Assembly (NCBI GenBank): GCA_951828385.1
Contig: OX639973.1
Coordinates: 2,407,200 to 2,471,199, forward strand
Length of the DNA stretch: 64,000 nucleotides
DNA from: an uncultured Poribacteria bacterium
Lineage (GTDB): Bacteria; Poribacteria; WGA-4E; WGA-3G
Reading direction: 5' to 3'
Both the position numbers and the translations under genes were made by a program. Positions 7,856-63,702 of the stretch are shown here, piece after piece. The notes beneath the pieces were generated by a model. It did not search any database. It saw only the letters and a program-made list of their open reading frames with translations, and had not been told where the DNA came from. Positions within the stretch are counted from its first letter, which is position 1, and every line of letters starts with the position of its first letter.

Positions 7856-7941
7856 GGCTTACATCTATAAAAGTAAAGTTCCTTATGATATGGGGACGCT
7901 TTGCCATATCCCTTGGCACGCTTCAAAGCTCTGAAAGTAGA

Positions 7942-9453
7942 ATGTTTATGGTCTCTACAAGAAAAATATCTTTATTTTTATTTTTTAGTTTCCTTTGTTT
8001 TGTGATCGTATCCATCGCCTCTACCGAGTTATTTTCGCAACGCGGTATGAGTGTTACTATCCGCACAGAGAACGGGGAGGAGTTTGCTCTCTATAAGGAT
8101 TCTTATGCGCTTATTATTGGAAATGGCGCATATCCAGTGAAAAACGGTTGGAATCCGCTTCCGGGTGCAGTAGAAGATGTCAAAGAAGTCGCAGAAGTCC
8201 TTGAACACCATGGGTTCAATGTGACGCTGAAAATAGATGTAACGAAGACTGAGTTTAATCAAGTATTTTCGGAGTTTATCTATGAATTTGGTAAAAATAA
8301 GGATAATAGACTTCTGTTTTATTATGCAGGGCATGGTTACACGACAAAAGCAGCAACAGGTGAGGACCTTGGCTACCTTGTGATGCTTGATACGCCGAGT
8401 CCTGAGAATGCTGCAGCATTTGACCTCTATAGTGTCGATATGGTCAAGTTCGTATCGGATTCTAAGAAGATTCACGCCAAGCATGTTCTTTTTATGTTTG
8501 ATAGCTGCTTCTCAGGCACAGTGCTAAACCTGAGAAATCGAGTTACTCCCTCCCATATTACGGATCGGATTAAGAATCCTGTGCGCCAGTTCATCACAGC
8601 CGGTCGTGCGGATGAACCCGTGCCAGATAGGAGCGAATTTAAGAAAGCATTTTTGAATATCCTTGAAGGGCGCGTTGAAGAACCGACACCAGATGGTTAC
8701 CTGACAGGTGTTGAGTTGGGAGATTACCTCTATCGAACAGTCCCAAAGTTCTCTCAAGGACAACACCCGCAACATGGAAAGATTCACGATCAGCAATTGA
8801 ACACTGGTGATTTTGTGTTTGTGCTTTCTCAGAACAATAGTGAGGATAATGGCGTTGAGTTAGATACGATAGCGATGTTAAACATAACCAGTAACCCGAG
8901 TGGCGCAATGGTTTATGCTGATGGCATCCTAATCGGGATAACACCGTTAGATAGTTACGAGATTGACACAGGTCCTCGTCTTGAGAAACAGGTAAATATA
9001 GGTTTAGAACTTTCAGGCTACAAGAGCCGTGTTAAAAAAATAACGTTAAAAGGTGGTCAACAGTTCCCGTGGAACGTGCCTTTAGAGAAAATGACGAGCA
9101 AGCCTGCTGAATCCATAACTGATGTTCAGAGGGATGAAGAAACTGCAACGTATCTCTCGCTGGTGTCTGATAATCCACATATTCTTGTACCGATAAACGA
9201 TATGAGGGAATGGAGTGGGTGGAATGGTTGGTTCTGGGAAAAAGTGAAAGGTGAACAACCTACTGAACGGCCTTCTATTTTTTCAGGCAATTATGCGGAT
9301 AGATTTGACCATTGGATGTACTCACATGCCGAAAGCCATATCGTCTATGATATAAGCGGTGGTGAATACTCTCAATTTGATGGGAATTTAATTACACCCA
9401 GCTCATGTATAGAAACCATTGAACTCATATTTCTAGTAGTGCTTCAATGTTGA
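7942..9453 (+). CDS. Caspase-domain (peptidase C14) protein. This is the 5' part of a caspase–NPCBM-like–FGE-sulfatase gene truncated by a stop inside the 127-bp tandem repeat.
   Basis: Signal peptide, then caspase His/Cys dyad motifs YYAGHGY and FMFDSCFSG. It is 90% identical to paralogs at 11043 and 14675 over the caspase region. The C-terminal HIVYDISGGEYSQFDGNLI matches the N-half of an NPCBM-like module. The stop TGA at 9451 lies in repeat copy 1. Confidence 0.6.
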   Translation: MFMVSTRKISLFLFFSFLCFVIVSIASTELFSQRGMSVTIRTENGEEFALYKDSYALIIGNGAYPVKNGWNPLPGAVEDVKEVAEVLEHHGFNVTLKIDVTKTEFNQVFSEFIYEFGKNKDNRLLFYYAGHGYTTKAATGEDLGYLVMLDTPSPENAAAFDLYSVDMVKFVSDSKKIHAKHVLFMFDSCFSGTVLNLRNRVTPSHITDRIKNPVRQFITAGRADEPVPDRSEFKKAFLNILEGRVEEPTPDGYLTGVELGDYLYRTVPKFSQGQHPQHGKIHDQQLNTGDFVFVLSQNNSEDNGVELDTIAMLNITSNPSGAMVYADGILIGITPLDSYEIDTGPRLEKQVNIGLELSGYKSRVKKITLKGGQQFPWNVPLEKMTSKPAESITDVQRDEETATYLSLVSDNPHILVPINDMREWSGWNGWFWEKVKGEQPTERPSIFSGNYADRFDHWMYSHAESHIVYDISGGEYSQFDGNLITPSSCIETIELIFLVVLQC

Positions 9454-9813
9454 GTTTATAGGTAATCCTGTTCGTAGTAGGGCAATTCATTGCCCGTTGC
9501 TGACGTGCGATAAATCGCACTACTACGAACCTACCCTCAGATTCAAAGTTGAAAGACTACTAGTAGTGCTTCAATGTTGAGTTTATAGGTAATCCTGTTC
9601 GTAGTAGGGCAATTCATTGCCCGTTGCTGACGTGCGATAAATCGCACTACTACGAACCTACCCTCAGATTCAAAGTTGAAAGACTACTAGTAGTGCTTCA
9701 ATGTTGAGTTTATAGGTAATCCTGTTCGTAGTAGGGCAATTCATTGCCCGTTGCTGACGTGCGATAAATCGCACTACTACGAACCTACCCTCAGATTCAA
9801 AGTTGAAAGACTA
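9433..9813. repeat. Tandem repeat of 3 x 127 bp with nested palindromes (gttcgtagtag/ctactacgaac arms; gggcaattcattgccc; tgcgataaatcgca)
   Basis: Units start at 9433, 9560 and 9687 and are identical by eye. The total of 381 bp equals 127 codons. The repeat lies between the two halves of the split gene. Confidence 0.9.
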
Positions 9814-10899
9814 CTAGTGGATAACAAAGTTGTCTATAACTCAGGTCGGGTTAGGGTTTTTGAACCTATGCGTGTTGCATTCAACATACCTGCTGACGCC
9901 AAAACTCTGACGATCCGCGTAACAGATGGCGGCGATGGGGGCAGATGCGATCACTGGATACTTGGAGACGCACGTCTACTGGAAACTCGGCAACCTATCT
10001 CCGCTAAACCAAAACCGGATGTCCCACAGACAACCATTGAAAATGACATCACCATAAACCAGGAAGCGCGATCGCCCTCGCCAAATATGCCACAAACGGT
10101 TGTTGGAAAGGATGGGGCGGAAATGGTGTTAATTCCGGCAGGCGACTTCCAGATGGGGAGCGGGGCCGGTCGCCTTTACAATGCCGCGACAATTCCTGTC
10201 CATACTGTCTATATTGATGCATTTTACATTGACAAATACGAGGTGACCGTTGGGCGATACAACCAATTTGTCCGTGCCACTGGACATCGTCCGTTGCCGG
10301 ATTGGATGTCTAAATATTCTCCAACAGACCAGCATCCGGTTGTCGGTGTAACTTGGGACGACACAATAGCATACGCGAAATGGGCAGGCAAACGACTTCC
10401 AACAGAAGCGGAATGGGAAAAAGCGGCAAGGGGTGGTTTGATAGGAAGAGACCACCCGTGGGGTAATGCTCCGCTGGACGGTACACAGTGCAATTTTGCC
10501 GACAAAAGTCTGTGGGAAGTTTGGAACGAAGAACGGAATGATGAAGATAATGATGCGGATAAAAGTATTAATGATGGTTACGCGTACACCGCCCCGATTG
10601 GCAGTTACCCACCGAACGGATATGGTTTATACGATATGGCAGGGAATGTGGCAGAATGGTGCTTTGATGCGTATGATGAAAATTTTTACGCCAATTCTCC
10701 TCGGCGGAACCCAGTTGCAGATATACTTATACGAGATGGTGAAAATAACATAGTCGCTATTAACAAATTGCGCGTTGTGCGAGGCGGTTCCTGGTACCAT
10801 TGGCCGGTGGCAGTGTGGATTGCCTGTCGTACCCCGAATTCGCCTACGCTGCGTCACAGAAACGGCGGTTTTCGCTGTGTGAAGTCGGTAACGCCCTGA
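9751..10899 (+). CDS. 3' fragment of the split gene: NPCBM-like C-half plus an FGE-sulfatase (formylglycine-generating-enzyme-like) domain. It may be translated from an internal ATG.
   Basis: Same reading frame as 7885..9453. VVYNSGRVRVFEP...VTDGGDGGRCDHWILGDARLLE matches the C-half of the NPCBM-like domain of ORF 16736. The FGE motif is YAKWAGKRLPTEAEWEKAARGG...YGLYDMAGNVAEWC...RGGSW. Confidence 0.5.
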   Translation: MLTCDKSHYYEPTLRFKVERLLVDNKVVYNSGRVRVFEPMRVAFNIPADAKTLTIRVTDGGDGGRCDHWILGDARLLETRQPISAKPKPDVPQTTIENDITINQEARSPSPNMPQTVVGKDGAEMVLIPAGDFQMGSGAGRLYNAATIPVHTVYIDAFYIDKYEVTVGRYNQFVRATGHRPLPDWMSKYSPTDQHPVVGVTWDDTIAYAKWAGKRLPTEAEWEKAARGGLIGRDHPWGNAPLDGTQCNFADKSLWEVWNEERNDEDNDADKSINDGYAYTAPIGSYPPNGYGLYDMAGNVAEWCFDAYDENFYANSPRRNPVADILIRDGENNIVAINKLRVVRGGSWYHWPVAVWIACRTPNSPTLRHRNGGFRCVKSVTP

Positions 10900-11042
10900 A
10901 TCTTTGGACCTTTGTCTGTCGCGTCTGATGCCCAAACAAACTGGAAACTAATGCATTTTTAGGATTGGTAAATCTTTAGCCCTCGTTAGTCGCGAGTTCC
11001 TTTCAACTAAAGCCTATAAGCGCAAATTGCATATAGTACCTT

Positions 11043-13175
11043 ATGAAAAAAATACCTTTATTTTTATTTTTTTATATTCTTTGCGGTGTAACCATGCTAA
11101 TTGTTGCAACCGAGCTGTTCTCGCAACGCGGTATGAGCGTTACTGTTCTCACAAAGAACGGGGAGGAATTTAACCTCTATAAAGATTCATACGCTTTGGT
11201 TATTGGAAATGGAGCATACCCCGTAAAGAACGGTTGGAATCCGCTCCCCGGTGCGATAAAGGATGTCAAAGAAGTCGCAGAAGTTCTTGAAAACCAAGGA
11301 TTTAATGTCACCCTGAAAATAGATGTGACAAAAGCTGAGTTTAACAAAGCGTTTTCGGAGTTCATCCATAAATCGGGGAAAGATAAAGATAACCGACTCC
11401 TGTTTTACTACGCGGGTCACGGTTACACGACGAAGGCGGCAACAGGTGAGGATCTCGGCTACCTCGTTATGCTCGATACACCGAGTCCTGAGAACACTGT
11501 CGAGTTTGATCTCTATAGTGTGGATATGGTCAAATTTGTGTCGGATTCCAAGAAGATTCATGCCAAACATGTCCTATTTATGTTCGATAGCTGCTTCTCA
11601 GGGACAGTGTTGAACCTGAGAAATCGTGTTACGCCCTCCCATATTACGGATCGGATTAAGAATCCTGTGCGCCAGTTCATCACAGCCGGTCGTGCGGATG
11701 AACCCGTGCCGGATAGGAGTGAGTTCAAGAAGGCGTTTTTGAACATCCTTGAAGGGCGCGTTGAAGAACCGACACCAGATGGTTACCTGACAGGTGTTGA
11801 GTTAGGAGATTACCTCTACCGAACGGTCCCAAAGTTCTCACGAGGACAACACCCACAACATGGGAAAATCCACGACCAGCAGCTCAATACAGGTGATTTT
11901 GTGTTTGTGCTTCCTCAAAACGATCAGAGCGGTAGTGAGGATACCGGTATTGAGTTGAACACGATAGCAACGTTGGACATAACCAGCACACCGAGTGGCG
12001 CAACGGTCTATGTTGATAGTATCGCAATCGGCATAACCCCCATTAAAGACTATCAAATTGATACCGGTATCCGTCTTGAAAAGCAGGTGAATGTCGGGTT
12101 GGAACTTTCAGGCTATAAGAGTCGTGTTAAGAAAATGACACTGAAAGGTGGTCAAGAGTTCCCTTGGGACGTATCTTTAGAAAAAATGGCCACACAACCC
12201 CTATTGCCGAAACCAAAGTCCGATATACAGGAAACAATAGTTGAGAAAGATGTTGATGTCAATGAGACGGAACCGGAGGAAATGACAAAAGAACCGGTGT
12301 CGCCAAAACAAAAGCCAAGTGTGCCAGAGATAATAGTTGAAGAAGATGTCAGCATCAATAAAAGAGAGCGTCTACCATCTACAGATTTGCCGCAGAGGAT
12401 TGTAGGCAAAGACGGTGCTGAAATGGTATTGATCCCGGCTGGGGACTTCCAGATGGGAAGCAACCATACTGGCGATTCTAATGAAAAGCCTGTGCATACG
12501 GTTTACGTTGATGCATTCTATATGGACATTCACGAAGTGACAGTTGGACAATATTATCAATTTACTGTTGCCACTGGACATCCCGCACCATCATACTCGC
12601 TTTCTCCATTTTCTCCGACAGATCGACATCCAATGGTCTATGTGAGTTGGCACGACGCGATGGCATACGCGAAATGGGCGGGTAAACGTCTACCGACAGA
12701 AGCAGAGTGGGAGAAAGCCGCACGCGGTGGCTATATTGGTCAGAAATATCCGTGGGGTAATGGTCCACCGGATGGGACCCAGTGTAATTTTGCGGATAAA
12801 AGCGGGGCGAACTCAGGCAGGTGGGAAAATTGGGATAAGAGTGCTGATGATGGTTACGTGTACACTGCTCCCGTCGGCAGTTATCCACCGAACGGATATG
12901 GTTTGTATGATATGGCAGGTAATGTATGGGAGTGGTGCTTTGATGCCTACGATGCGAATTTCTATGCAAGTTCTCCACCTCGGAATCCGATTGCAGGCAT
13001 CATTGTAACAAATATGACCGATAATTCAATAACTGTGAATGAATCTCGTGTGTTACGAGGCGGTTCTTGGACTCCTCATCCTCAAAATGTGCGTTCTGCA
13101 CACCGATGGTCATACGGAGCACATTCAGTGAGCTTCTCTGTTGGTTTCCGTTGTGTGAAACCAGTAACGCCTTGA
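11043..13175 (+). CDS. Caspase (C14) – FGE-sulfatase fusion protein, secreted (intact paralog)
   Basis: Signal peptide, caspase motifs AGHGY and DSCFSG, a Pro/Glu/Lys-rich linker, and a C-terminal FGE-sulfatase domain (RLPTEAEWEKAARGG, GNVWEWC, RGGSW). Confidence 0.8.
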   Translation: MKKIPLFLFFYILCGVTMLIVATELFSQRGMSVTVLTKNGEEFNLYKDSYALVIGNGAYPVKNGWNPLPGAIKDVKEVAEVLENQGFNVTLKIDVTKAEFNKAFSEFIHKSGKDKDNRLLFYYAGHGYTTKAATGEDLGYLVMLDTPSPENTVEFDLYSVDMVKFVSDSKKIHAKHVLFMFDSCFSGTVLNLRNRVTPSHITDRIKNPVRQFITAGRADEPVPDRSEFKKAFLNILEGRVEEPTPDGYLTGVELGDYLYRTVPKFSRGQHPQHGKIHDQQLNTGDFVFVLPQNDQSGSEDTGIELNTIATLDITSTPSGATVYVDSIAIGITPIKDYQIDTGIRLEKQVNVGLELSGYKSRVKKMTLKGGQEFPWDVSLEKMATQPLLPKPKSDIQETIVEKDVDVNETEPEEMTKEPVSPKQKPSVPEIIVEEDVSINKRERLPSTDLPQRIVGKDGAEMVLIPAGDFQMGSNHTGDSNEKPVHTVYVDAFYMDIHEVTVGQYYQFTVATGHPAPSYSLSPFSPTDRHPMVYVSWHDAMAYAKWAGKRLPTEAEWEKAARGGYIGQKYPWGNGPPDGTQCNFADKSGANSGRWENWDKSADDGYVYTAPVGSYPPNGYGLYDMAGNVWEWCFDAYDANFYASSPPRNPIAGIIVTNMTDNSITVNESRVLRGGSWTPHPQNVRSAHRWSYGAHSVSFSVGFRCVKPVTP

Positions 13176-13341
13176 ACTTTTTTACCTTTGTCTGATCCGC
13201 CTGATGCTCAAACAATTTGGAAACTGATGCATTTTCAGGATTGGTGAATCTTTAGTCTTCGTAGGTCGCGAGTTCCTTTCAACTAAAGCCTATAAGCACA
13301 AACTGCGTATAATATCCAATGAAAAAAATACCTTTACTGAT

Positions 13342-14676
13342 ATTTCTCAAAAGTTATTGTAAAGCAATGATTATCAGGGTTCTTTTGGTATTATTGTATG
13401 AAAATGCGTTATGAAGTCCGTAAGCGTCTGTCTTTCTCCAGTGAGTTGAAGTTGTATTTGATGAAAAGTGCGTCGTTCTGAGATGCTCATTTGTAGCAAC
13501 ATCAGATAACTCATCACTTTTATACCGAGGCTCACATACGCCCCTTGTCTGCTTTCGAGGCTCATGGCAGAGACGTGGAGGTTCGATTTGAAGTGCCGCC
13601 AAAACTGTTCAATACCGTGGTGTTGAGACCAAATCCTGAGAGCCTCAGAGGTGCGTAGGGGTTTTCCAAAGACTAAAAGGGTTCGTATCTTGCCTCTATC
13701 TCGGAAAAATAGGACGACACATTCCCCGAAAGTTGGACTTTCTGCTTTGAGGCGACAGGCGGGTTTATCACAGCCCCATTGATCCGCAGCCAGCGCCACG
13801 CGTCTTTTATGAACCGAAAGTTTCGCCTTTGTATCAGCGATAGTCATGACGTAGTTATTTTTTCCGTGAATCAATATAGAGGTAAACCCCAACTCCGATA
13901 AAGCCTCAACAAGTTTACGGCTCCCATACCATGAATCGAAGGTGATTGGATATTTTCTGATGTCTATGCCGTGGGTATCAAAGAACGCTAAGACTTCTTG
14001 GATCATGGTGATAACGAGAGTAGGTTTATCTGTGTTGCCGCGTCCTTGTTTACTGACGAGACGCATATCTAAGGGGATCACGCGATCTCCGCATTTCAGT
14101 GTGATGCCTAAGAGGTTCTGACACCAGATAGGCGTATTGTGTTTTTTCGAGTAGTAGTTTGAACAGTAAGATAACGTCTCGCCTTCACGCGGGAGATTGC
14201 TATCATCAATACTGACGGTGATACACCGCCGCGATTGTGTTGAAGCACTCTTACTTTCAGTGTCTTTGATGAAATCAACTGCCATCGCACATCCGAGCCG
14301 GAGATTCAAACATTTCGAGTGATAAAGGCTCAGGTTTCCAAGACTGCGATAAAGACGTGCTTTGGGAAGTTTCAAAGCATCGGCGACTTGATTCGGATTG
14401 TAAAGTCCAAAAAGATGGCAAACACAGAGCAGAAGTAGCGTCTCAACGATTTGCTGCCGCATCCGCTGAAAGTAAGAAGAAAGAAGGTCTTGAAAAAAGA
14501 TTGTAGATTTGATAAGGTGATCCTGCATGAGATGGCCTCCTAAAGGTTGTAGTTATCTCTTAGGATGCCATCTCATGCGCTAAAAATCAAGAAACTTTTT
14601 CAAAACCATCGCATTTTCACTTGGCTACACCTGCGATCTCTTGATTATTATTACCTCCTTGATAGATTTGAGAAAT
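13342..14676 (-). mobile_element. IS element of about 1.3 kb (IS701/IS4-like) inserted into codons 7-8 of the third caspase–FGE paralog
   Basis: The ends atttctcaaa... and ...tttgagaaat are imperfect inverted repeats. Upstream, 13176-13341 duplicates the promoter region and ATGAAAAAAATACC start of paralog 2. The flanks read through in frame (…ctg at|g cca gct…). Confidence 0.6.
13374..14528 (-). CDS. DDE transposase (IS701/IS4 superfamily-like)
   Basis: VSIDDSNLPREGE (DDT-like first Asp), FDSWYGS (second Asp), a downstream ...SLESRQG...K signature, and a length of 384 aa. Confidence 0.55.
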   Translation of the reverse strand: MQDHLIKSTIFFQDLLSSYFQRMRQQIVETLLLLCVCHLFGLYNPNQVADALKLPKARLYRSLGNLSLYHSKCLNLRLGCAMAVDFIKDTESKSASTQSRRCITVSIDDSNLPREGETLSYCSNYYSKKHNTPIWCQNLLGITLKCGDRVIPLDMRLVSKQGRGNTDKPTLVITMIQEVLAFFDTHGIDIRKYPITFDSWYGSRKLVEALSELGFTSILIHGKNNYVMTIADTKAKLSVHKRRVALAADQWGCDKPACRLKAESPTFGECVVLFFRDRGKIRTLLVFGKPLRTSEALRIWSQHHGIEQFWRHFKSNLHVSAMSLESRQGAYVSLGIKVMSYLMLLQMSISERRTFHQIQLQLTGERQTLTDFITHFHTIIPKEP

Positions 14677-16711
14677 GCCAGCTTTATTTCTATTTTTTTG
14701 TATTCTTTGCGGTGTAACCATGCTTATTGCTGCAACCGATTTGTTTTCGCAACGCGGTATGAGTGTTACCGTCCAGACCGAGAGTGGAGAAGAGTTCGGT
14801 CTCTATAAAGACTCCCATGCGCTGATTATTGGAAATGGTGCATATCCCGTGGAGAACGGTTGGAATCCGCTTCCGGGTGCAGTGAAAGATGTTAAAGAAG
14901 TTGCAGAGATCCTTGAACGCCACGGATTCAAAGTAACCCTGAAAATAGATGTGACAAAGACTGAGTTCAATGAGGCATTTTCAGAATTTATCTACGATTT
15001 TGGTAAAGATCCGGACAACCGACTTCTATTTTACTACGCGGGTCACGGTTACACGACGAAGGCGGCAACAGGTGAGGATCTCGGCTACCTCGTCATGCTT
15101 GATACGCCAAGTCCTGAGAACGCCGCCAAGTTTGATCTGTATAGTGTGGATATGGTCAAGTTTGTATCCGACTCCAAGAAGATCCACGCCAAGCATGTGC
15201 TATTTATGTTTGATAGCTGCTTTTCTGGAACGGTGCTCAATCTTAGGAATCGGGTTACACCATCCCACATTACAGATCGAATCAAAAATCCGGTGCGTCA
15301 GTTCATCACAGCAGGTCGTGCCGATGAACCTGTGCCGGATAGGAGTGAGTTCAAGAAGGCGTTTTTGAACATCCTTGAAGGGCGCGTTGAAGAACCGACA
15401 CCAGATGGTTATTTGACAGGTGTCGAGTTAGGGGATTACCTCTACCGAACGGTGCCGAAGTTCTCACGAGGACAACACCCGCAACATGGAAAAATCCACG
15501 ACCAGCAGCTAAACACCGGTGATTTTGTGTTCGTACTTTCTCAAAACGATCAGAATGGTAGCGAGGATAACGGTATTGAGTTGAACACGATAGCGACGTT
15601 GGACATAACCAGCACACCGGCGGGCGCGAAAGTCTACGTTGACGGCAACTGGATTGGTACGACTCCGTTGCGCAGTTATCAATTTGATACGGGTATTCGT
15701 CTTGAAAAACAGGTGAATGTCGGCTTAGAGCTTTCGGGTTACAAAAGTCGTGTTAAGAGAATAACGCTAAAAGGCGGTCAACAGGTCCCGTGGGATGTGC
15801 ATTTAGAAAAGATAGAAAGAAAGCCGATACAACCGAAGCCGAGCGTGCCAGAAACACCTCCTGAGAAAGGTCCGAGTATCAGTGAAGAAAAACTGTTGAT
15901 TTCCCGGAATACGCTACAGACAATAGTTGGAAATGACGGTGCTGAGATGGTACTGATTCCAGCCGGCGAATTTGAGATGGGGCACAATGGTACGGCAATA
16001 ACAAAACCTGTGCACACTGTCTACGTTGATGCATTTTACATCGATAAATACGAGGTCACTGTTAGGCAATACAATCAATTCGTTCGTGCCACTGGACATC
16101 CTCCCTTACCGGATTCAGTATCTAAGTATTCTCCAACAGATCAACACCCCGTTGTCCTTGTGACTTGGGATGATGCGATGGCATACGCGAAGTGGACAGG
16201 AAAAAGACTTCCGACAGAGGCGGAATGGGAGAAAGCGGCGCGCGGTGGTTTAGCAGGAAAACGGCATGCCTGGGGCGATGCTGCGCTGGATGGAACACAG
16301 TGTAACTTTGCAGATAAGAGTTTGAACGAAGTGTGGGAGAAAGAAAGAAAACCAGAAGATAATTGGGCGGATAAAAGTATTGATGATGGTTACACACACG
16401 CTGCTCCTGTCGGTAGTTATCCACCGAATGGATATGGTTTATACGATATGGGGGGGAATGTGGCAGAATGGTGCTTTGATGCGTATGATGAAAATTTTTA
16501 TGCCAATTCTCCGCGTCGCAACCCAATAGCAGATATACTTATAAGAGATGGTGAAAATAATATAGTCGCTATTAATAAATTGCGCGTTTTGCGAGGTGGT
16601 TCTTGGTACTATTCGCAAGGGACAGTGTGGATCGCCAGTCGCCTTGGGATTGATCCCAAAAACGCGGCGAGCAGCCAAGGTTTTCGTTGTGCGAAATCGG
16701 TAGATCCTTAA
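14675..16711 (+). CDS. Caspase (C14) – FGE-sulfatase fusion protein. The N-terminus was rebuilt by the IS insertion, with the ATG lying at the IS junction.
   Basis: MPALFLFFCILCGVTMLIAA retains a hydrophobic leader. Caspase and FGE motifs are as in the paralogs. Confidence 0.7.
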   Translation: MPALFLFFCILCGVTMLIAATDLFSQRGMSVTVQTESGEEFGLYKDSHALIIGNGAYPVENGWNPLPGAVKDVKEVAEILERHGFKVTLKIDVTKTEFNEAFSEFIYDFGKDPDNRLLFYYAGHGYTTKAATGEDLGYLVMLDTPSPENAAKFDLYSVDMVKFVSDSKKIHAKHVLFMFDSCFSGTVLNLRNRVTPSHITDRIKNPVRQFITAGRADEPVPDRSEFKKAFLNILEGRVEEPTPDGYLTGVELGDYLYRTVPKFSRGQHPQHGKIHDQQLNTGDFVFVLSQNDQNGSEDNGIELNTIATLDITSTPAGAKVYVDGNWIGTTPLRSYQFDTGIRLEKQVNVGLELSGYKSRVKRITLKGGQQVPWDVHLEKIERKPIQPKPSVPETPPEKGPSISEEKLLISRNTLQTIVGNDGAEMVLIPAGEFEMGHNGTAITKPVHTVYVDAFYIDKYEVTVRQYNQFVRATGHPPLPDSVSKYSPTDQHPVVLVTWDDAMAYAKWTGKRLPTEAEWEKAARGGLAGKRHAWGDAALDGTQCNFADKSLNEVWEKERKPEDNWADKSIDDGYTHAAPVGSYPPNGYGLYDMGGNVAEWCFDAYDENFYANSPRRNPIADILIRDGENNIVAINKLRVLRGGSWYYSQGTVWIASRLGIDPKNAASSQGFRCAKSVDP

Positions 16712-16735
16712 ATCGTTATTTCTTATTTTCAACCT

Positions 16736-18898
16736 ATGAAACACATTATCATTTTACTTGCCTTAACGCTCCTTGCCTTGAATGCTTATAGTGCCAAAGA
16801 GGACTGTCATAACCTTGCCGGAGCGGGACCACAACCGATCCGAAAAGTCGCCAATGAAAACCTTGGCACTATCAACGACTATGAAACTGTTGTCAAAGAG
16901 GATACACGCGATGGTGTGACCTATCTATCCTTTATCGGTGGTAGCCAGCCCAAACCGAACGCCTGCGGACTCAATCCGAAAAACGCCAGACTCAACTGGA
17001 CAGGTTGGGGCGGTCCTATTGATACCGATAACGCCAGTATCGGTCAAGGTGTTGGGTTTCGTAACGAAATCGTTATTGGTGGTATCTATTTTGAGCGCGG
17101 ACTCGGTACGCATGCGAACGCCAAGATCATCTATAACCTCACTGGCGGCGATTATGTTAAATTTGAAGGGTATATCGGCATGTCAGACGAGACGGATCCA
17201 GATGCTTGTGGTAATGCTGGAAGTTCGATTTTTACTTTTAAGGTTGATGATAAGACAGTTTTTGAATCCGGAACCATCCAGGGCGCGGTTAACGGACTGA
17301 ATGTCCCACCAGTGAGAGTTTCTTTTGATATTCCCCCCAATGCGAAAGAGCTCGAAATCATCATCAATACTACAGAGGACGGAGCCTGTGCTGATCATGC
17401 AACGGTTGCTGATGCTAAACTCCTTGATGCTGATGCTGCAGCCACCACTACAACCCCTGAGACACCGATGACCGTCACGACAAGTAAACGGCTGGTGCGT
17501 GTCATCTATTTCGTGCCACTTAACCAGGCGCGGCAATGGAATTTTGAGGATACGCTTGATATACAACTGAAAGAGGTGCAGCAGATCTACGCTGAGCAGT
17601 TAGAAGAACACGGTTACGGCAGAAAAACTTTTGAAATCGAAACGGACAGCGACGGTAAGGTTGTAGTGCATTTTATCTCTGGTAGACAAAGTGACAAATA
17701 CTATCACACTGACACAATCCGCAAAGTTACTGATGAAATCAAGGCGCGCTTTAATGTTGAGCGCGATGTTTATCTCGTTGCTATTGAAAGCAGTGCAGAA
17801 CTGATTGAAGGAAGCTGCGGTGTCGCGTATTTAGATGGTGGCCCCGCGCTTGTCATATCGGCTGGTGATTGTGTCTCTAGTGATTACGGTGTCCCGTTGA
17901 TTGCGCATGAGCTCGGGCACGCCTTTAACTTAGAACACGATTTCCAGGACGATAGTTATTTTATGTCCTACGGGAGTAGTCGCCGAAAGTTTTCGGCATG
18001 CTCCGCAGCTGCGTTGAGCGTCAGCCCGTTCTTGAATCAAGAAGATCCTTATATCGCGACTGGTAATGGACAGTCTACAATGGAATTGGTTTCAGAACCG
18101 GTCTATCCGGAAAATGGCAGCAGTCATACGCTCCAGTTCAAAGTGGGTGACGCAGAGGGTATTCACATTGTTCACTTTCTTGTACCGCATCGCACTATAG
18201 ATCCGATGACCTCCAGCACAGGGGCAACGGTCTACGATTGCAAGAAACTCAACGATGTTAAAAGCGCGACCGTCTCATTTGAATTGCCGGAATACTTTAT
18301 GACTTTCCGTACCAATAAGGTCCATATCCGCATGTTTGATGTCCAGGGCAGCAGTATCGCGAAGGAGTGGACACTTACTGCTGACAATATAGAACCTATC
18401 ATTGTTGAGAACCACACGGATGTCAATAGCGATGGTGTGGTCAATCTCGTCGATCTTGTGATTGTCGCGTCGCGGTACGGTGAACGTATCACAGGCGATC
18501 CGAACCCGAATCCCGATGTCAATCGCGACGGCATTGTGGACATCAACGACCTTATTCTTATCACAAACGAGATGCCTGTCGGTGTTGCACCTACACAACT
18601 CCCAATCGCTACACAACTTTTTCATAACTACCCCAACCCGTTCAACCCTGAGACGTGGATACCGTATATACTCTCGTACTCCGCCGATGTCTCTATTGAG
18701 ATCCATGCAACCGATGGCAACCTCGTTAGACGCTTGGCAATCGGACAGCAACCGGCAGGCCTCTACGTAAACAAAGCGAATGCCGCCTATTGGGATGGCA
18801 GAAACGCCTTTGGTGAACCTATCGCAAGCGGTCTCTATTTCTATACGCTCATTGCTGGTGATTATGCAGCAACCCGCAAAATGATCATCCGAAGATGA
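16736..18898 (+). CDS. Secreted multidomain zinc metalloprotease: NPCBM-like domain, metzincin-like HELGHAFNLEHD site, dockerin type-I repeat pair, and a T9SS-like C-terminal sorting domain
   Basis: Signal peptide. NPCBM-like segment GTHANAKIIYNLTGGDYVKF...EDGACADHATVADAKLL. HEXXHXXXXXH with downstream Asp. DVNSDGVVNLVDLV...DVNRDGIVDINDLIL. C-terminal NYPNPFNPETWIPY...LYFYTLIAGDYAATRKMIIRR. Confidence 0.6.
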   Translation: MKHIIILLALTLLALNAYSAKEDCHNLAGAGPQPIRKVANENLGTINDYETVVKEDTRDGVTYLSFIGGSQPKPNACGLNPKNARLNWTGWGGPIDTDNASIGQGVGFRNEIVIGGIYFERGLGTHANAKIIYNLTGGDYVKFEGYIGMSDETDPDACGNAGSSIFTFKVDDKTVFESGTIQGAVNGLNVPPVRVSFDIPPNAKELEIIINTTEDGACADHATVADAKLLDADAAATTTTPETPMTVTTSKRLVRVIYFVPLNQARQWNFEDTLDIQLKEVQQIYAEQLEEHGYGRKTFEIETDSDGKVVVHFISGRQSDKYYHTDTIRKVTDEIKARFNVERDVYLVAIESSAELIEGSCGVAYLDGGPALVISAGDCVSSDYGVPLIAHELGHAFNLEHDFQDDSYFMSYGSSRRKFSACSAAALSVSPFLNQEDPYIATGNGQSTMELVSEPVYPENGSSHTLQFKVGDAEGIHIVHFLVPHRTIDPMTSSTGATVYDCKKLNDVKSATVSFELPEYFMTFRTNKVHIRMFDVQGSSIAKEWTLTADNIEPIIVENHTDVNSDGVVNLVDLVIVASRYGERITGDPNPNPDVNRDGIVDINDLILITNEMPVGVAPTQLPIATQLFHNYPNPFNPETWIPYILSYSADVSIEIHATDGNLVRRLAIGQQPAGLYVNKANAAYWDGRNAFGEPIASGLYFYTLIAGDYAATRKMIIRR

Positions 18899-19272: not shown

Positions 19273-21348
19273 ATGGGGAATCGACATTTGGCAGGAAACA
19301 CGGCTGACGGCACCGCCCTCATCAGAACTGATCCGTTGCTGAAACCTTACACTGCCCAACTGCGCGAGCGGTTTGCGCACTATCAACGTTTCAAAGCAGA
19401 GATTGAGAAAACGGGTGGTGTATTAGGCAAGATTAGCCAAGGACACCAATATTTCGGTTTCAACCGTGGCGAACACGAAGGCGAAACCGGGGTCTGGTAC
19501 CGCGAATGGGCACCCGGTGCGGAGCGGCTTGCGCTCATCGGCGATTTTAACGACTGGTCGCGCGATGCGAACCCGATGTCCGTTGATGATTGGGGTGTGT
19601 GGCACATCTTTTTGCCTGACAGCGAATATGCTGATCGGTTCACACACGGCAGCCGCGTCAAGGTGCATGTTGTCAGTAGGGACGAGGTGACCTCGCCCCT
19701 ACGTGGACTTGATCGGATTCCGGCATATATCCAGCGCGTCGTTCAGGAAGGCGATGCTGATTTCGCAGGTCAGTATTGGGCACCACAGCATCCGTATCAG
19801 TGGCAGCACCGTGCACCCGATTTTGACATCAACGCTGAAGGATTGCGGATTTACGAAGCGCATGTCGGCATGGCGCAAGAAGCAGAGAAGGTCGGAACAT
19901 TTGTTGAGTTTACGCAAAACATCTTGCCCCGAATTGTGGATTTAGGCTATAACGCTGTGCAGCTAATGGCGGTGATGGAGCATCCGTATTATGCGAGTTT
20001 CGGGTATCACGTGAGCAACTTTTTCGCTGTCTCAAGCCGTTTCGGAACACCGGAGGAGCTCAAGGAGCTCATTGATACGGCGCACAGTATGGGGTTGCTG
20101 GTTATCATGGATCTGGTGCATAGCCATGCGGTTAAAAATCTCAACGAAGGGTTGAGCCGTTTTGATGGCACGGAACATCAGTATTTCCACGCCGGGGCGA
20201 AAGGTGAACACGTCGCATGGGATTCGCTATGCTTCGATTATAGCAAATACGAGGTACAACGTTTTCTACTGAGCAATATTCGCTACTGGTTAGAAACCTA
20301 TCGGTTTGACGGATTCAGATTTGATGGTGTCACGAGTATGCTCTATAGCGATCACGGGTTAGAACGAGAGTTCACGGGCTATGCCGATTACTTTGACACC
20401 GATGTTGAACTGGACGCTATCGCCTACCTGATGTTGGCGAATGCGGTTGTTCATGCTGTCAACCCGGCTGCTATTTCGATTGCTGAAGACATGAGCGGTA
20501 TGCCCGGCCTTGCACGTCCTACCGAAGAAGGTGGACTCGGCTTCGATTATCGGCTTGCAATGGGGATCCCAGATTATTGGATTCGGTTGTTGAAGGAGAA
20601 ACAGGACGAAGCGTGGCAGATCGGCGAGATTTACGGTATGCTACGCGACCGCCGTGCAGGTGAAAAACACATCGCTTACGTCGAAAGCCACGACCAGTCG
20701 ATCGTCGGCGATAAGACGCTTGCTATGCAACTCATGGACACTGAACTCTACACGAACATGAGTGTTTCCACGACGAGCCATCTGATTTCTCGCGGCGTTG
20801 CGCTCCATAAACTCATCCGACTCCTGACGTTTAGTTTAGGTGGCGAGGGGTATCTGAACTTTATAGGAAATGAGTTCGGACACCCTGAATGGGTTGATTT
20901 TCCACGCGCAGGAAACAATAACTCCTACAAGTATGCGCGCAGGCAGTGGCACCTCGTTGAAGATGACACCCTCCGTTACAAACATCTCAACACTTTTGAC
21001 CGCGCGATGCAGCACCTCGATGCAACCTACCATCTGCTTGCTGATGCGGATATTCAACTTTTATGTATTCATGAGGAAGCGAAACAGATCGTTTATGCGC
21101 GGGGTGGACTCGTCTTTGCTTTCAACTTTCATCCGACTGAATCTGTTACGGATTGGCGTATCCCTGTGCCTGAGAAGACGGATTACCGACGCGTTCTCAA
21201 TACCGATGATACGGCATTCGGAGGCTACGGTGCTGTAGAGGGTGTCCATTATCCGTGGCAAGATGTTGCGATAGAGGGGCAGGCGCAATCGATTCAACTC
21301 TATGTCCCTGCCCGAAGTGCGCAGGTGTTAGTATCTGGTCATAAATAG
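19273..21348 (+). CDS. glgB: 1,4-alpha-glucan branching enzyme, GH13 (eukaryote-type GH13_8-like)
   Basis: GH13 catalytic regions FRFDGVTSMLY, GNEFGHPEW, ESHDQS and DLVHSHA. The length of about 690 aa is typical of eukaryote-like branching enzymes. Confidence 0.75.
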   Translation: MGNRHLAGNTADGTALIRTDPLLKPYTAQLRERFAHYQRFKAEIEKTGGVLGKISQGHQYFGFNRGEHEGETGVWYREWAPGAERLALIGDFNDWSRDANPMSVDDWGVWHIFLPDSEYADRFTHGSRVKVHVVSRDEVTSPLRGLDRIPAYIQRVVQEGDADFAGQYWAPQHPYQWQHRAPDFDINAEGLRIYEAHVGMAQEAEKVGTFVEFTQNILPRIVDLGYNAVQLMAVMEHPYYASFGYHVSNFFAVSSRFGTPEELKELIDTAHSMGLLVIMDLVHSHAVKNLNEGLSRFDGTEHQYFHAGAKGEHVAWDSLCFDYSKYEVQRFLLSNIRYWLETYRFDGFRFDGVTSMLYSDHGLEREFTGYADYFDTDVELDAIAYLMLANAVVHAVNPAAISIAEDMSGMPGLARPTEEGGLGFDYRLAMGIPDYWIRLLKEKQDEAWQIGEIYGMLRDRRAGEKHIAYVESHDQSIVGDKTLAMQLMDTELYTNMSVSTTSHLISRGVALHKLIRLLTFSLGGEGYLNFIGNEFGHPEWVDFPRAGNNNSYKYARRQWHLVEDDTLRYKHLNTFDRAMQHLDATYHLLADADIQLLCIHEEAKQIVYARGGLVFAFNFHPTESVTDWRIPVPEKTDYRRVLNTDDTAFGGYGAVEGVHYPWQDVAIEGQAQSIQLYVPARSAQVLVSGHK

Positions 21349-63535: not shown

Positions 63536-63702
63536 AGAAAACACTGATAAAAACCCTCATTATCGTCTCTATACTCGGATTTATTGCTGGATACCTCACA
63601 GCTGCCCTGCCCTGCAATCATTGTGAAATTGTGGTTTTGAAGGTAGGAACCCACAAAATATTGGGTGAACATTACTGGTATTGCCCAAAAAACGATCATT
63701 AG
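63532..63702 (+). CDS. Unlisted 56-aa small membrane protein with CxxC...C...H
   Basis: MKKTLIKTLIIVSILGFIAGYLTAALPCNHCEIVVLKVGTHKILGEHYWYCPKNDH. A 4-nt ATGA overlap with the upstream ORF suggests coupling. It is below the ORF-track length cutoff. Confidence 0.3.
   Translation: MKKTLIKTLIIVSILGFIAGYLTAALPCNHCEIVVLKVGTHKILGEHYWYCPKNDH

Follow-up and report, generated by a model that had tools for sequence, protein, structure and literature searches.

An insertion sequence splitting the signal-peptide codons of a caspase–FGE-sulfatase gene in a sponge-symbiotic Poribacteria genome

We analysed a 64,000-nucleotide stretch of contig OX639973.1 from an uncultured member of the Poribacteria, a sponge symbiont (assembly GCA_951828385.1; the whole stretch is referred to below as the window). 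A cluster of three paralogous genes precedes glgB in this stretch, and the signal-peptide codons of the third gene, paralog 3, are split by a 1345-bp insertion sequence (IS) lying in the minus-strand orientation. The initial annotation of the locus had recognised that an IS with its transposase gene on the minus strand divides the leader codons of paralog 3, and that an upstream region resembling that of paralog 2 is separated, together with the first codons of the gene (ATG at 13319), from the remainder of the open reading frame (ORF). Both observations hold, with a true element length of 1345 bp in place of the approximately 1335 bp given there. The features of the locus are collected in Table 1.

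Boundaries of the insertion and sequence of the interrupted gene

The ends of the element were located by a repeat search and by comparison with its relatives. A scan of one genome per species yielded 147 related IS loci, 80 of which were retrieved and analysed; all 80 came from Poribacteria assemblies. Both ends could be recognised as CTGNNATTTNTCA...TGANAAATNNCAG (CTG...CAG) in 58 of the retrieved loci, and a perfect 5-bp direct repeat was present immediately outside the ends in 37 of these 58. Five near-identical copies found elsewhere (95–98% identity, 1345–1346 bp) have the same terminal bases and lie in unrelated contexts. Because the ends of the relatives and those of the near-identical copies agree, the element is delimited to the coordinates given in Table 1, with a 5-bp target duplication. 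Its terminal inverted repeats are 15 nt long and imperfect, with 13 of 15 positions complementary; the transposase-proximal repeat is identical in the second occupied genome described below (L082) and in four copies from another sample (L089–L092). Terminal repeats, a target duplication, a transposase gene, multiple copies in differing contexts and empty sites are all present, and these are the defining features of a DDE-type insertion sequence. The window contains no second copy or fragment of the element; a repeat-like match at 63675 is due to chance.

Table 1. Coordinates of features at the paralog 3 locus (numbering of the window).
Feature	Position	Strand	Basis
Native upstream (promoter) region of paralog 3, with TATAAT at 13308-13313	13176..13318	+	Alignment to 10850-11160 upstream of paralog 2
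Remnant of original start, ATG AAA AAA ATA CCT TTA (MKKIPL)	13319..13336	+	Sequence; orthologs begin MKK[IT]PLFLFF
Left copy of target duplication, CTTTA	13332..13336	.	Sequence; 5-bp duplication at same ends in 37/58 relatives; CTTTA also in L082
Insertion sequence, IS4/IS701 superfamily, multi-copy in Poribacteria genomes	13337..14681	-	Inverted repeats, ends of relatives, empty orthologous sites
Transposase-distal terminal inverted repeat, CTGATATTTCTCAAA	13337..13351	+	Repeat search and family consensus
Transposase gene, 384 aa, DDE type	13374..14528	-	ORF and profile matches
Hairpin in transposase mRNA leader	14525..14578	-	19-nt arms, 95% complementary
Transposase-proximal terminal inverted repeat, CTGGCATTTCTCAAA (outward on + strand, TTTGAGAAATGCCAG)	14667..14681	-	Repeat search
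IS-borne ATG, 7-5 nt from IS tip, in frame with paralog 3	14675..14677	+	Sequence; constant in repeat of subfamily
Present paralog 3 ORF, 678 aa, caspase - PEGA - FGE-sulfatase	14675..16711	+	ORF and domain matches
Right copy of target duplication, CTTTA	14682..14686	.	Sequence; 5-bp duplications among relatives

Excision of the IS together with one copy of CTTTA restores the sequence ATG AAA AAA ATA CCT TTA TTT CTA TTT TTT TGT, which encodes MKKIPLFLFFC (MKKIPLFLFFCILCG...). This reconstruction is colinear with paralog 2 (MKKIPLFLFFY), conforms to the N-terminal pattern of the family, M[KR]K[IT][SP]LFLFF, and is identical over its first 16 residues to a homolog (P0037) that starts MKKIPLFLFFCILCGV. 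At the nucleotide level, paralog 2 and the orthologs are uninterrupted at the site and read ATGAAAAAA(A/T/C)ACCTTTATTT(T/C)TATTTTTTT. The closest orthologs are 680 aa long, which is the reconstructed length of the protein before insertion, and empty orthologous sites were found in further Poribacteria assemblies, namely L081 (in which three paralogs are followed by glgB), L083–L086 and L094. These comparisons establish both the boundaries of the element and the sequence that it entered. On the upstream side, the stop codon of paralog 2 lies at 13175, and the 143 nt that follow are homologous to the sequence preceding paralog 2 itself. On the downstream side, the first 7 nt of the present ORF are IS sequence and the next 5 nt are the duplication, after which the native gene continues from its codon 7.

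In the initial annotation each end of the element had been set 5 nt too far inward and the CTTTA duplication had been overlooked. The sequences CTGAT and GCCAG, assigned there to the gene as its flanks, form the outer 5-nt tips of the inverted repeats; likewise, six native codons (MKKIPL) and not seven remain on the left. The join behind the proposed protein MKKIPLL-MPALFLFF is 15 nt too long, with 10 nt of IS sequence and 5 nt of duplication, and it looked in frame because 15 is divisible by 3. The reading was to be abandoned if other copies placed the true end elsewhere and so put the flanks out of frame. Only half of this applies: the ends do lie elsewhere, and the flanks nevertheless share a frame after subtraction of one CTTTA.

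The native start that remains to the left of the IS now opens a 31-codon ORF (13319–13414, MKKIPLLIFLKSYCKAMIIRVLLVLLYENAL) that runs into the element, and transcription from the native promoter would yield RNA antisense to the 3′ end of the gene for the transposase. Native starts of the paralog family are not preceded by a Shine-Dalgarno sequence, as seen at 13308–13321 and 11032–11045 in the window, at 7990–8003 in L081, and in L083–L086 and L094. They carry instead a conserved TATAAT, TATAGT or TATAAC hexamer 5 nt before the ATG, an arrangement which, as read from the sequence, suggests leaderless mRNAs in this family. Gene callers often pass over the native start, giving internal-Met proteins of 663–668 aa. 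Five such homologs (P0005, P0012, P0015, P0016 and P0018) were suspected of carrying the same insertion and were discarded, all having an intact MKK... start; the short calls are choices of the gene callers due to the missing Shine-Dalgarno sequence. An exact look-up of the paralog 2 protein returned no identical record.

Target preference, recurrence in a second genome and origin of the ATG

To describe the sites at which the element inserts, a symmetrised position weight matrix was built from the 37 other copies with perfect duplications and used to scan the window with the IS removed (62,629 positions). The target pattern is AT-rich and roughly palindromic, A-N-W-W-A | YYNRR | T-W-W-N-T, with A at position −4, W at −2 and −1 and A at 0, followed by Y Y N R R and then by T, W, W, N and T. 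The insertion site in paralog 3, AAAAATAC CTTTA TTTCTATT, matches this pattern very well: its score of 11.0 gives it rank 9 among the 62,629 positions scanned and the top rank at the paralog 3 locus itself. The corresponding leader codons take rank 2 (paralog 1) and rank 4 (paralog 2) in the whole scan. The signal-peptide codons for Lys-Lys and for Leu and Phe are thus among the best targets in the window, and they show how codon composition can create a hot spot: a Lys-Lys pair followed by Phe/Leu runs fits an AT-seeking IS.

Symmetric target hot spots are known for IS10/Tn10 and for IS231 of the IS4 family. The present target resembles theirs in being roughly palindromic and centred on the duplication, and in being usable in either orientation at the same nucleotides. 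It differs in being AT-rich and of low information content (about 7–8 bits), and in having been derived from 37 natural copies and not from transposition assays.

The same site is occupied in a second genome. In L082 (ENA ERZ21861969, a 6.5-Mb contig), the syntenic gene upstream of glgB contains the same IS (29 differences in 1345 nt, 97.8% identical) at the same nucleotides, flanked by CTTTA as in the window and inserted the other way round. In the comparison of the window with L082, synonymous divergence (dS) is 0.057 for the transposase gene, 0.184 for glgB and 0.73 for paralog 3, with ratios of nonsynonymous to synonymous divergence (dN/dS) of 0.12, 0.134 and 0.10, respectively. On this measure the IS copies are much younger than the split between the two genomes.

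A scan with the left junction CCTTTACTGRYATTTCTCAAA gave two matches in metagenome contigs, both of which were rejected as chance occurrences in unrelated sequence. No paralog N-terminus (F[SP][QE]RG[MV] motif) was found in the flanks of the 80 related IS loci, and no paralog neighbours lie beside the four near-identical copies of ENA sample ERZ18545484 (L089–L092). Those four copies are 95–97% identical to the present element and share its ends, and they are not flanked by matching 5-bp duplications. In L089, a gene set comprising adh_short, a 182-aa and a 155-aa protein is present on both sides of the IS. This pattern suggests IS-mediated rearrangements or strain-level assembly joins in that sample.

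The ATG that opens the present paralog 3 ORF had been described as created at the junction between the IS and its flank. All three of its bases are IS sequence, and the end in which it lies, CTGGCAT, is present in all five near-identical copies. At this position distant subfamilies have either CTGACAT (outward ATGTCAG) or CTGATAT/CTGGTAT, which contain no ATG (e.g. outward ATATCAG). An in-frame TGA at 14669–14671, also within the repeat, precedes the ATG of the present element. Reading outward from 26 ends of related copies that also bear an ATG, open stretches extend to at most 85 codons, short of 100 in every case; since none of these ends opens a long ORF, supplying start codons is not a general property of the element. 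The frame match between the ATG and paralog 3 is a positional coincidence with a 1-in-3 chance, set by where the 5-bp cut fell. The opposite end of the IS, which faces the gene in L082, supplies TGA GAA ATA TCA G, which brings an in-frame TGA but nothing to start translation from. In L082 the first ATG that could be used lies beyond most of the hydrophobic core, and the ORF is equally intact.

Origin of the insertion and expression of paralog 3

In the explanation that we favour, with a probability of about 0.7, the insertion is a hot-spot disruption of a gene for a secreted protein, the ATG is coincidental, and the gene is probably silent or poorly expressed. The 1345-bp DDE element inserted by a 5-bp staggered cut into codons 5–6 of the signal peptide, a site that was hit as a preferred target given the fit of the leader codons to the AT-rich, roughly palindromic consensus. 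The ORF is thereby cut off from its native promoter and start codon, and most likely remains intact because the insertion is recent. An artefactual origin, by a chimeric assembly join through a repeated IS, is scarcely credible. ISs are multi-copy and often stand behind mis-joins, and the four close copies in the other sample lack duplications; however, the flanks of the present element are two halves of one gene, in the right order and frame, with one IS between them and a perfect 5-bp duplication, and the site is also occupied in the independent assembly of L082.

The two occupied sites probably reflect independent hits on the hot spot, and the AT-rich leader codons match the preference of the IS, which would therefore explain the repeated hits on this paralog family at identical nucleotides. 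A single ancestral insertion, inherited or exchanged by recombination and followed by inversion of the IS in place in one lineage, is a distinctly less probable history. It would account for the identity of position and duplication in the window and L082, the two copies are narrowly each other's nearest relatives (7 sites are shared by these two alone), and the upstream paralog 1 segment is approximately 97% identical between the genomes, so that a recent exchange of the region is conceivable. The divergence values point the other way, the dS of the transposase gene being approximately threefold below that of glgB and far below that of paralog 3, and its dN/dS is that expected of actively transposing lineages and not of a fixed, drifting copy. 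Moreover, the L082 copy is about as close to the L089 copy, which lies at an unrelated site (30 differences), as it is to the copy in the window. A single event is also disfavoured because no standard mechanism known to us would flip one IS between its 15-bp repeats and keep the duplication, and a hot spot usable in either orientation is predicted independently by the target model.

Whether paralog 3 is still expressed was judged from the sequence around the IS end. The initial annotation had proposed that an outward promoter borne by the IS could drive the gene, for which we found no positive support. The best plus-strand sigma-70-like match, and the only one of 9/12, combines a −35 hexamer, TTGAGA, in the repeat with a −10 hexamer, TATTTT, in the flank at a spacing of 17 nt; its predicted transcription start, near 14703, falls downstream of the ATG. 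The region has about as many promoter-like matches (5) as shuffled sequence (3.6 ± 1.8). The window as a whole has 0.44 matches of 8/12 per 100 nt, and those near the IS end would start transcription at 14654–14676. The ATG is not preceded by a Shine-Dalgarno sequence, in contrast to the majority of genes in the window (that of the transposase among them), which carry GGAG-type motifs. Outward or hybrid promoters of ISs are known to activate genes, as for IS1, IS2, IS10 (pOUT), IS256, and ISAba1 upstream of resistance genes. The present element resembles these in having an outward −35-like TTGAGA 8 nt from its tip and an AT-rich flank that may provide a −10 hexamer. It differs in that the predicted start lies downstream of the ATG supplied by the IS and in that the insertion is inside a coding region.

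As had been described initially, the in-frame ATG leaves a shortened hydrophobic leader (MPALFLFFCILCGVTMLIAA..., MPALFLFF...). No charged residue precedes the hydrophobic core of this fusion leader, whereas the native MKKIPLFLFF has two lysines; the core itself is unchanged. Long hydrophobic cores partly compensate for loss of n-region charge, as signal-peptide mutagenesis in E. coli has shown. Compared with Sec-type signal peptides that have a neutral n-region, the fusion keeps the h-region and the conserved ...ELFSQRGM segment, and the MKK n-region conserved among homologs is replaced by MPA.

Several observations weigh against a silent gene. Several outward promoter-like matches of 8/12 fall within the final 60 nt of the IS. 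One of them, TTGATT-16-TAGATT (14641–14668), would put the transcription start at the A of the ATG, a layout that mimics the native TATAAT 5 nt before an ATG without a Shine-Dalgarno sequence. The 2-kb ORF contains no disabling mutation, and its in-frame ATG stands before an 18-residue hydrophobic stretch, as in a rescued gene. A search for terminator-like sites on the plus strand found none in the stretch from paralog 2 to the IS and only two, both weak, inside the IS; read-through transcripts could therefore reach paralog 3. The low dN/dS of paralog 3 reflects a divergence older than the IS and gives no age for the insertion. We dropped dN/dS as a test of constraint after insertion on the same ground, the dS between paralog 3 alleles (0.65–0.9) predating the IS.

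Accordingly, expression of paralog 3 from the ATG of the IS, with the fusion leader still exported, has to be considered, and we regard it as unlikely. Transcription would have to come from a weak outward promoter at the IS end, from a hybrid promoter formed by TTGAGA and the −10 of the flank, or by read-through from the native promoter or paralog 2. Such expression would fit the in-frame ATG with its intact 678-aa ORF, the unchanged leader core, the 8/12 and 9/12 promoter-like matches at 14621–14696 and the scarcity of terminator-like sites. Leaderless or Shine-Dalgarno-independent initiation is possible in the family, since the native start is likewise without a Shine-Dalgarno sequence and follows a TATAAT hexamer by 5 nt. 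However, the promoter-like matches do not exceed the shuffled level, the best of them starts transcription downstream of the ATG, and both n-region lysines are lost. None of the 26 similar ATG-bearing IS ends is used in this manner. In L082, finally, the opposite orientation provides no start codon; because the ORF there is just as intact, an intact ORF is not evidence of rescue. We infer that paralog 3 is not effectively expressed. If the ATG of the IS does drive expression, the locus would be a tidy natural case of a start codon supplied by an IS.

A broader reading would make the leader codons of the paralog family (AAAAAATAYCTTTATTTYTATTT) a recurrent landing pad for the IS, at which orientation sets an on, altered or off outcome and thereby diversifies secreted caspase–FGE proteins. 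One orientation would provide an in-frame ATG, perhaps a leaderless start, and an altered leader, and the other would switch the gene off. This reading is improbable. The disruption that we favour involves nothing mechanistically new; its twist is that the codon composition of the signal peptide makes the hot spot common to the paralog family, which has been hit in two genomes and in both orientations.

Transposase lineage and surrounding gene cluster

The transposase is matched only at the margin of established families. In Pfam, it reaches 23.1 bits with DDE_Tnp_1 (cut-off 23) and 26.4 bits with DDE_5 (cut-off 27). Its best NCBIfam matches are IS701 models at 47–53 bits with cut-offs of 150–250. 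The individual IS701 scores, all below cut-off, are 52.9 versus 250 for NF049921, 47.3 versus 150 for NF033540 and 29.1 versus 170 for NF049999; an IS4 model (NF049925) likewise falls below its cut-off (41.4 versus 250 bits). In total, 317 homologs of the transposase were found at E ≤ 1e-100. By these profile matches the element appears to belong to an uncurated lineage of the IS4/IS701 superfamily that is restricted to Poribacteria among the 80 retrieved loci, and it is not called a member of IS701 because the curated cut-offs are missed by a wide margin. Family descriptions in ISfinder give IS701 elements a short target duplication of 4–5 bp, and that of the present IS is 5 bp. As in IS701 and ISAba11-like elements, a single transposase ORF fills 1.3–1.4 kb between short terminal repeats, and the duplication is 5 bp; the scores with the IS701 and DDE_5 models differ in a way that points to a distant lineage. 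ISAba11, whose repeats are 13 bp long, has been described as part of an emerging IS701-related family (PMC7519801). A literature search on Poribacteria insertion sequences returned nothing specific. The ends, repeats, duplication length and target consensus given here describe an abundant but uncatalogued lineage of Poribacteria ISs, and should aid annotation of uncultured sponge symbionts.

In the hairpin of the transposase mRNA leader, an upstream arm is predicted to pair with both the Shine-Dalgarno sequence, AGGAGG, and the transposase ATG (predicted fold of the leader −48.9 kcal/mol, z = −2.85). Translational brakes on transposase synthesis have been described for other ISs, and the predicted hairpin probably acts as such a brake. 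Its sequence also occurs in two distant relatives (L043 and L068).

The surrounding paralog cluster is structurally unstable. Paralog 1, with its caspase, PEGA, NPCBM and FGE-sulfatase domains, is broken at 9433–9818 by three perfect tandem units of 127 nt (381 nt in total), which split it into ORFs at 7885–9453 and 9751–10899. Its orthologs are uninterrupted at 853–858 aa, and L081 has no insert at the equivalent point (4272/4277). The 127-nt unit contains the internal inverted repeats GTTCGTAGTAG...CACTACTACGAAC, with CTAGTAG at its flanks, and looks like an element of the miniature inverted-repeat transposable element (MITE) or repetitive extragenic palindromic (REP) type; an Rfam scan of 9000–17000 matched no family. 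As paralogs 1 and 3 are both interrupted, two of the three paralogs of the cluster are disrupted by mobile or repeated DNA.

The alleles of paralog 3 (window 14720–16711, L082 8001–10001) are far more divergent, with a dS of 0.65–0.9 and a dN/dS of about 0.10, than the adjacent glgB (window 19273–21348), for which dS between the window and L082 is 0.18. Identity along the cluster forms a mosaic of 84–97%, which suggests old allelic lineages or frequent recombination. The syntenic cluster of L082 (2505–3392, 6618–7962) has no paralog 2, and a second, unrelated transposase of the IS1595 type adjoins another paralog there. In the window, an additional gene encoding a 720-aa protein with an NPCBM domain lies between paralog 3 and glgB (16736–18898). 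This gene is absent from L081 and L082 and is also found in L094, with faint Dockerin and Reprolysin matches.

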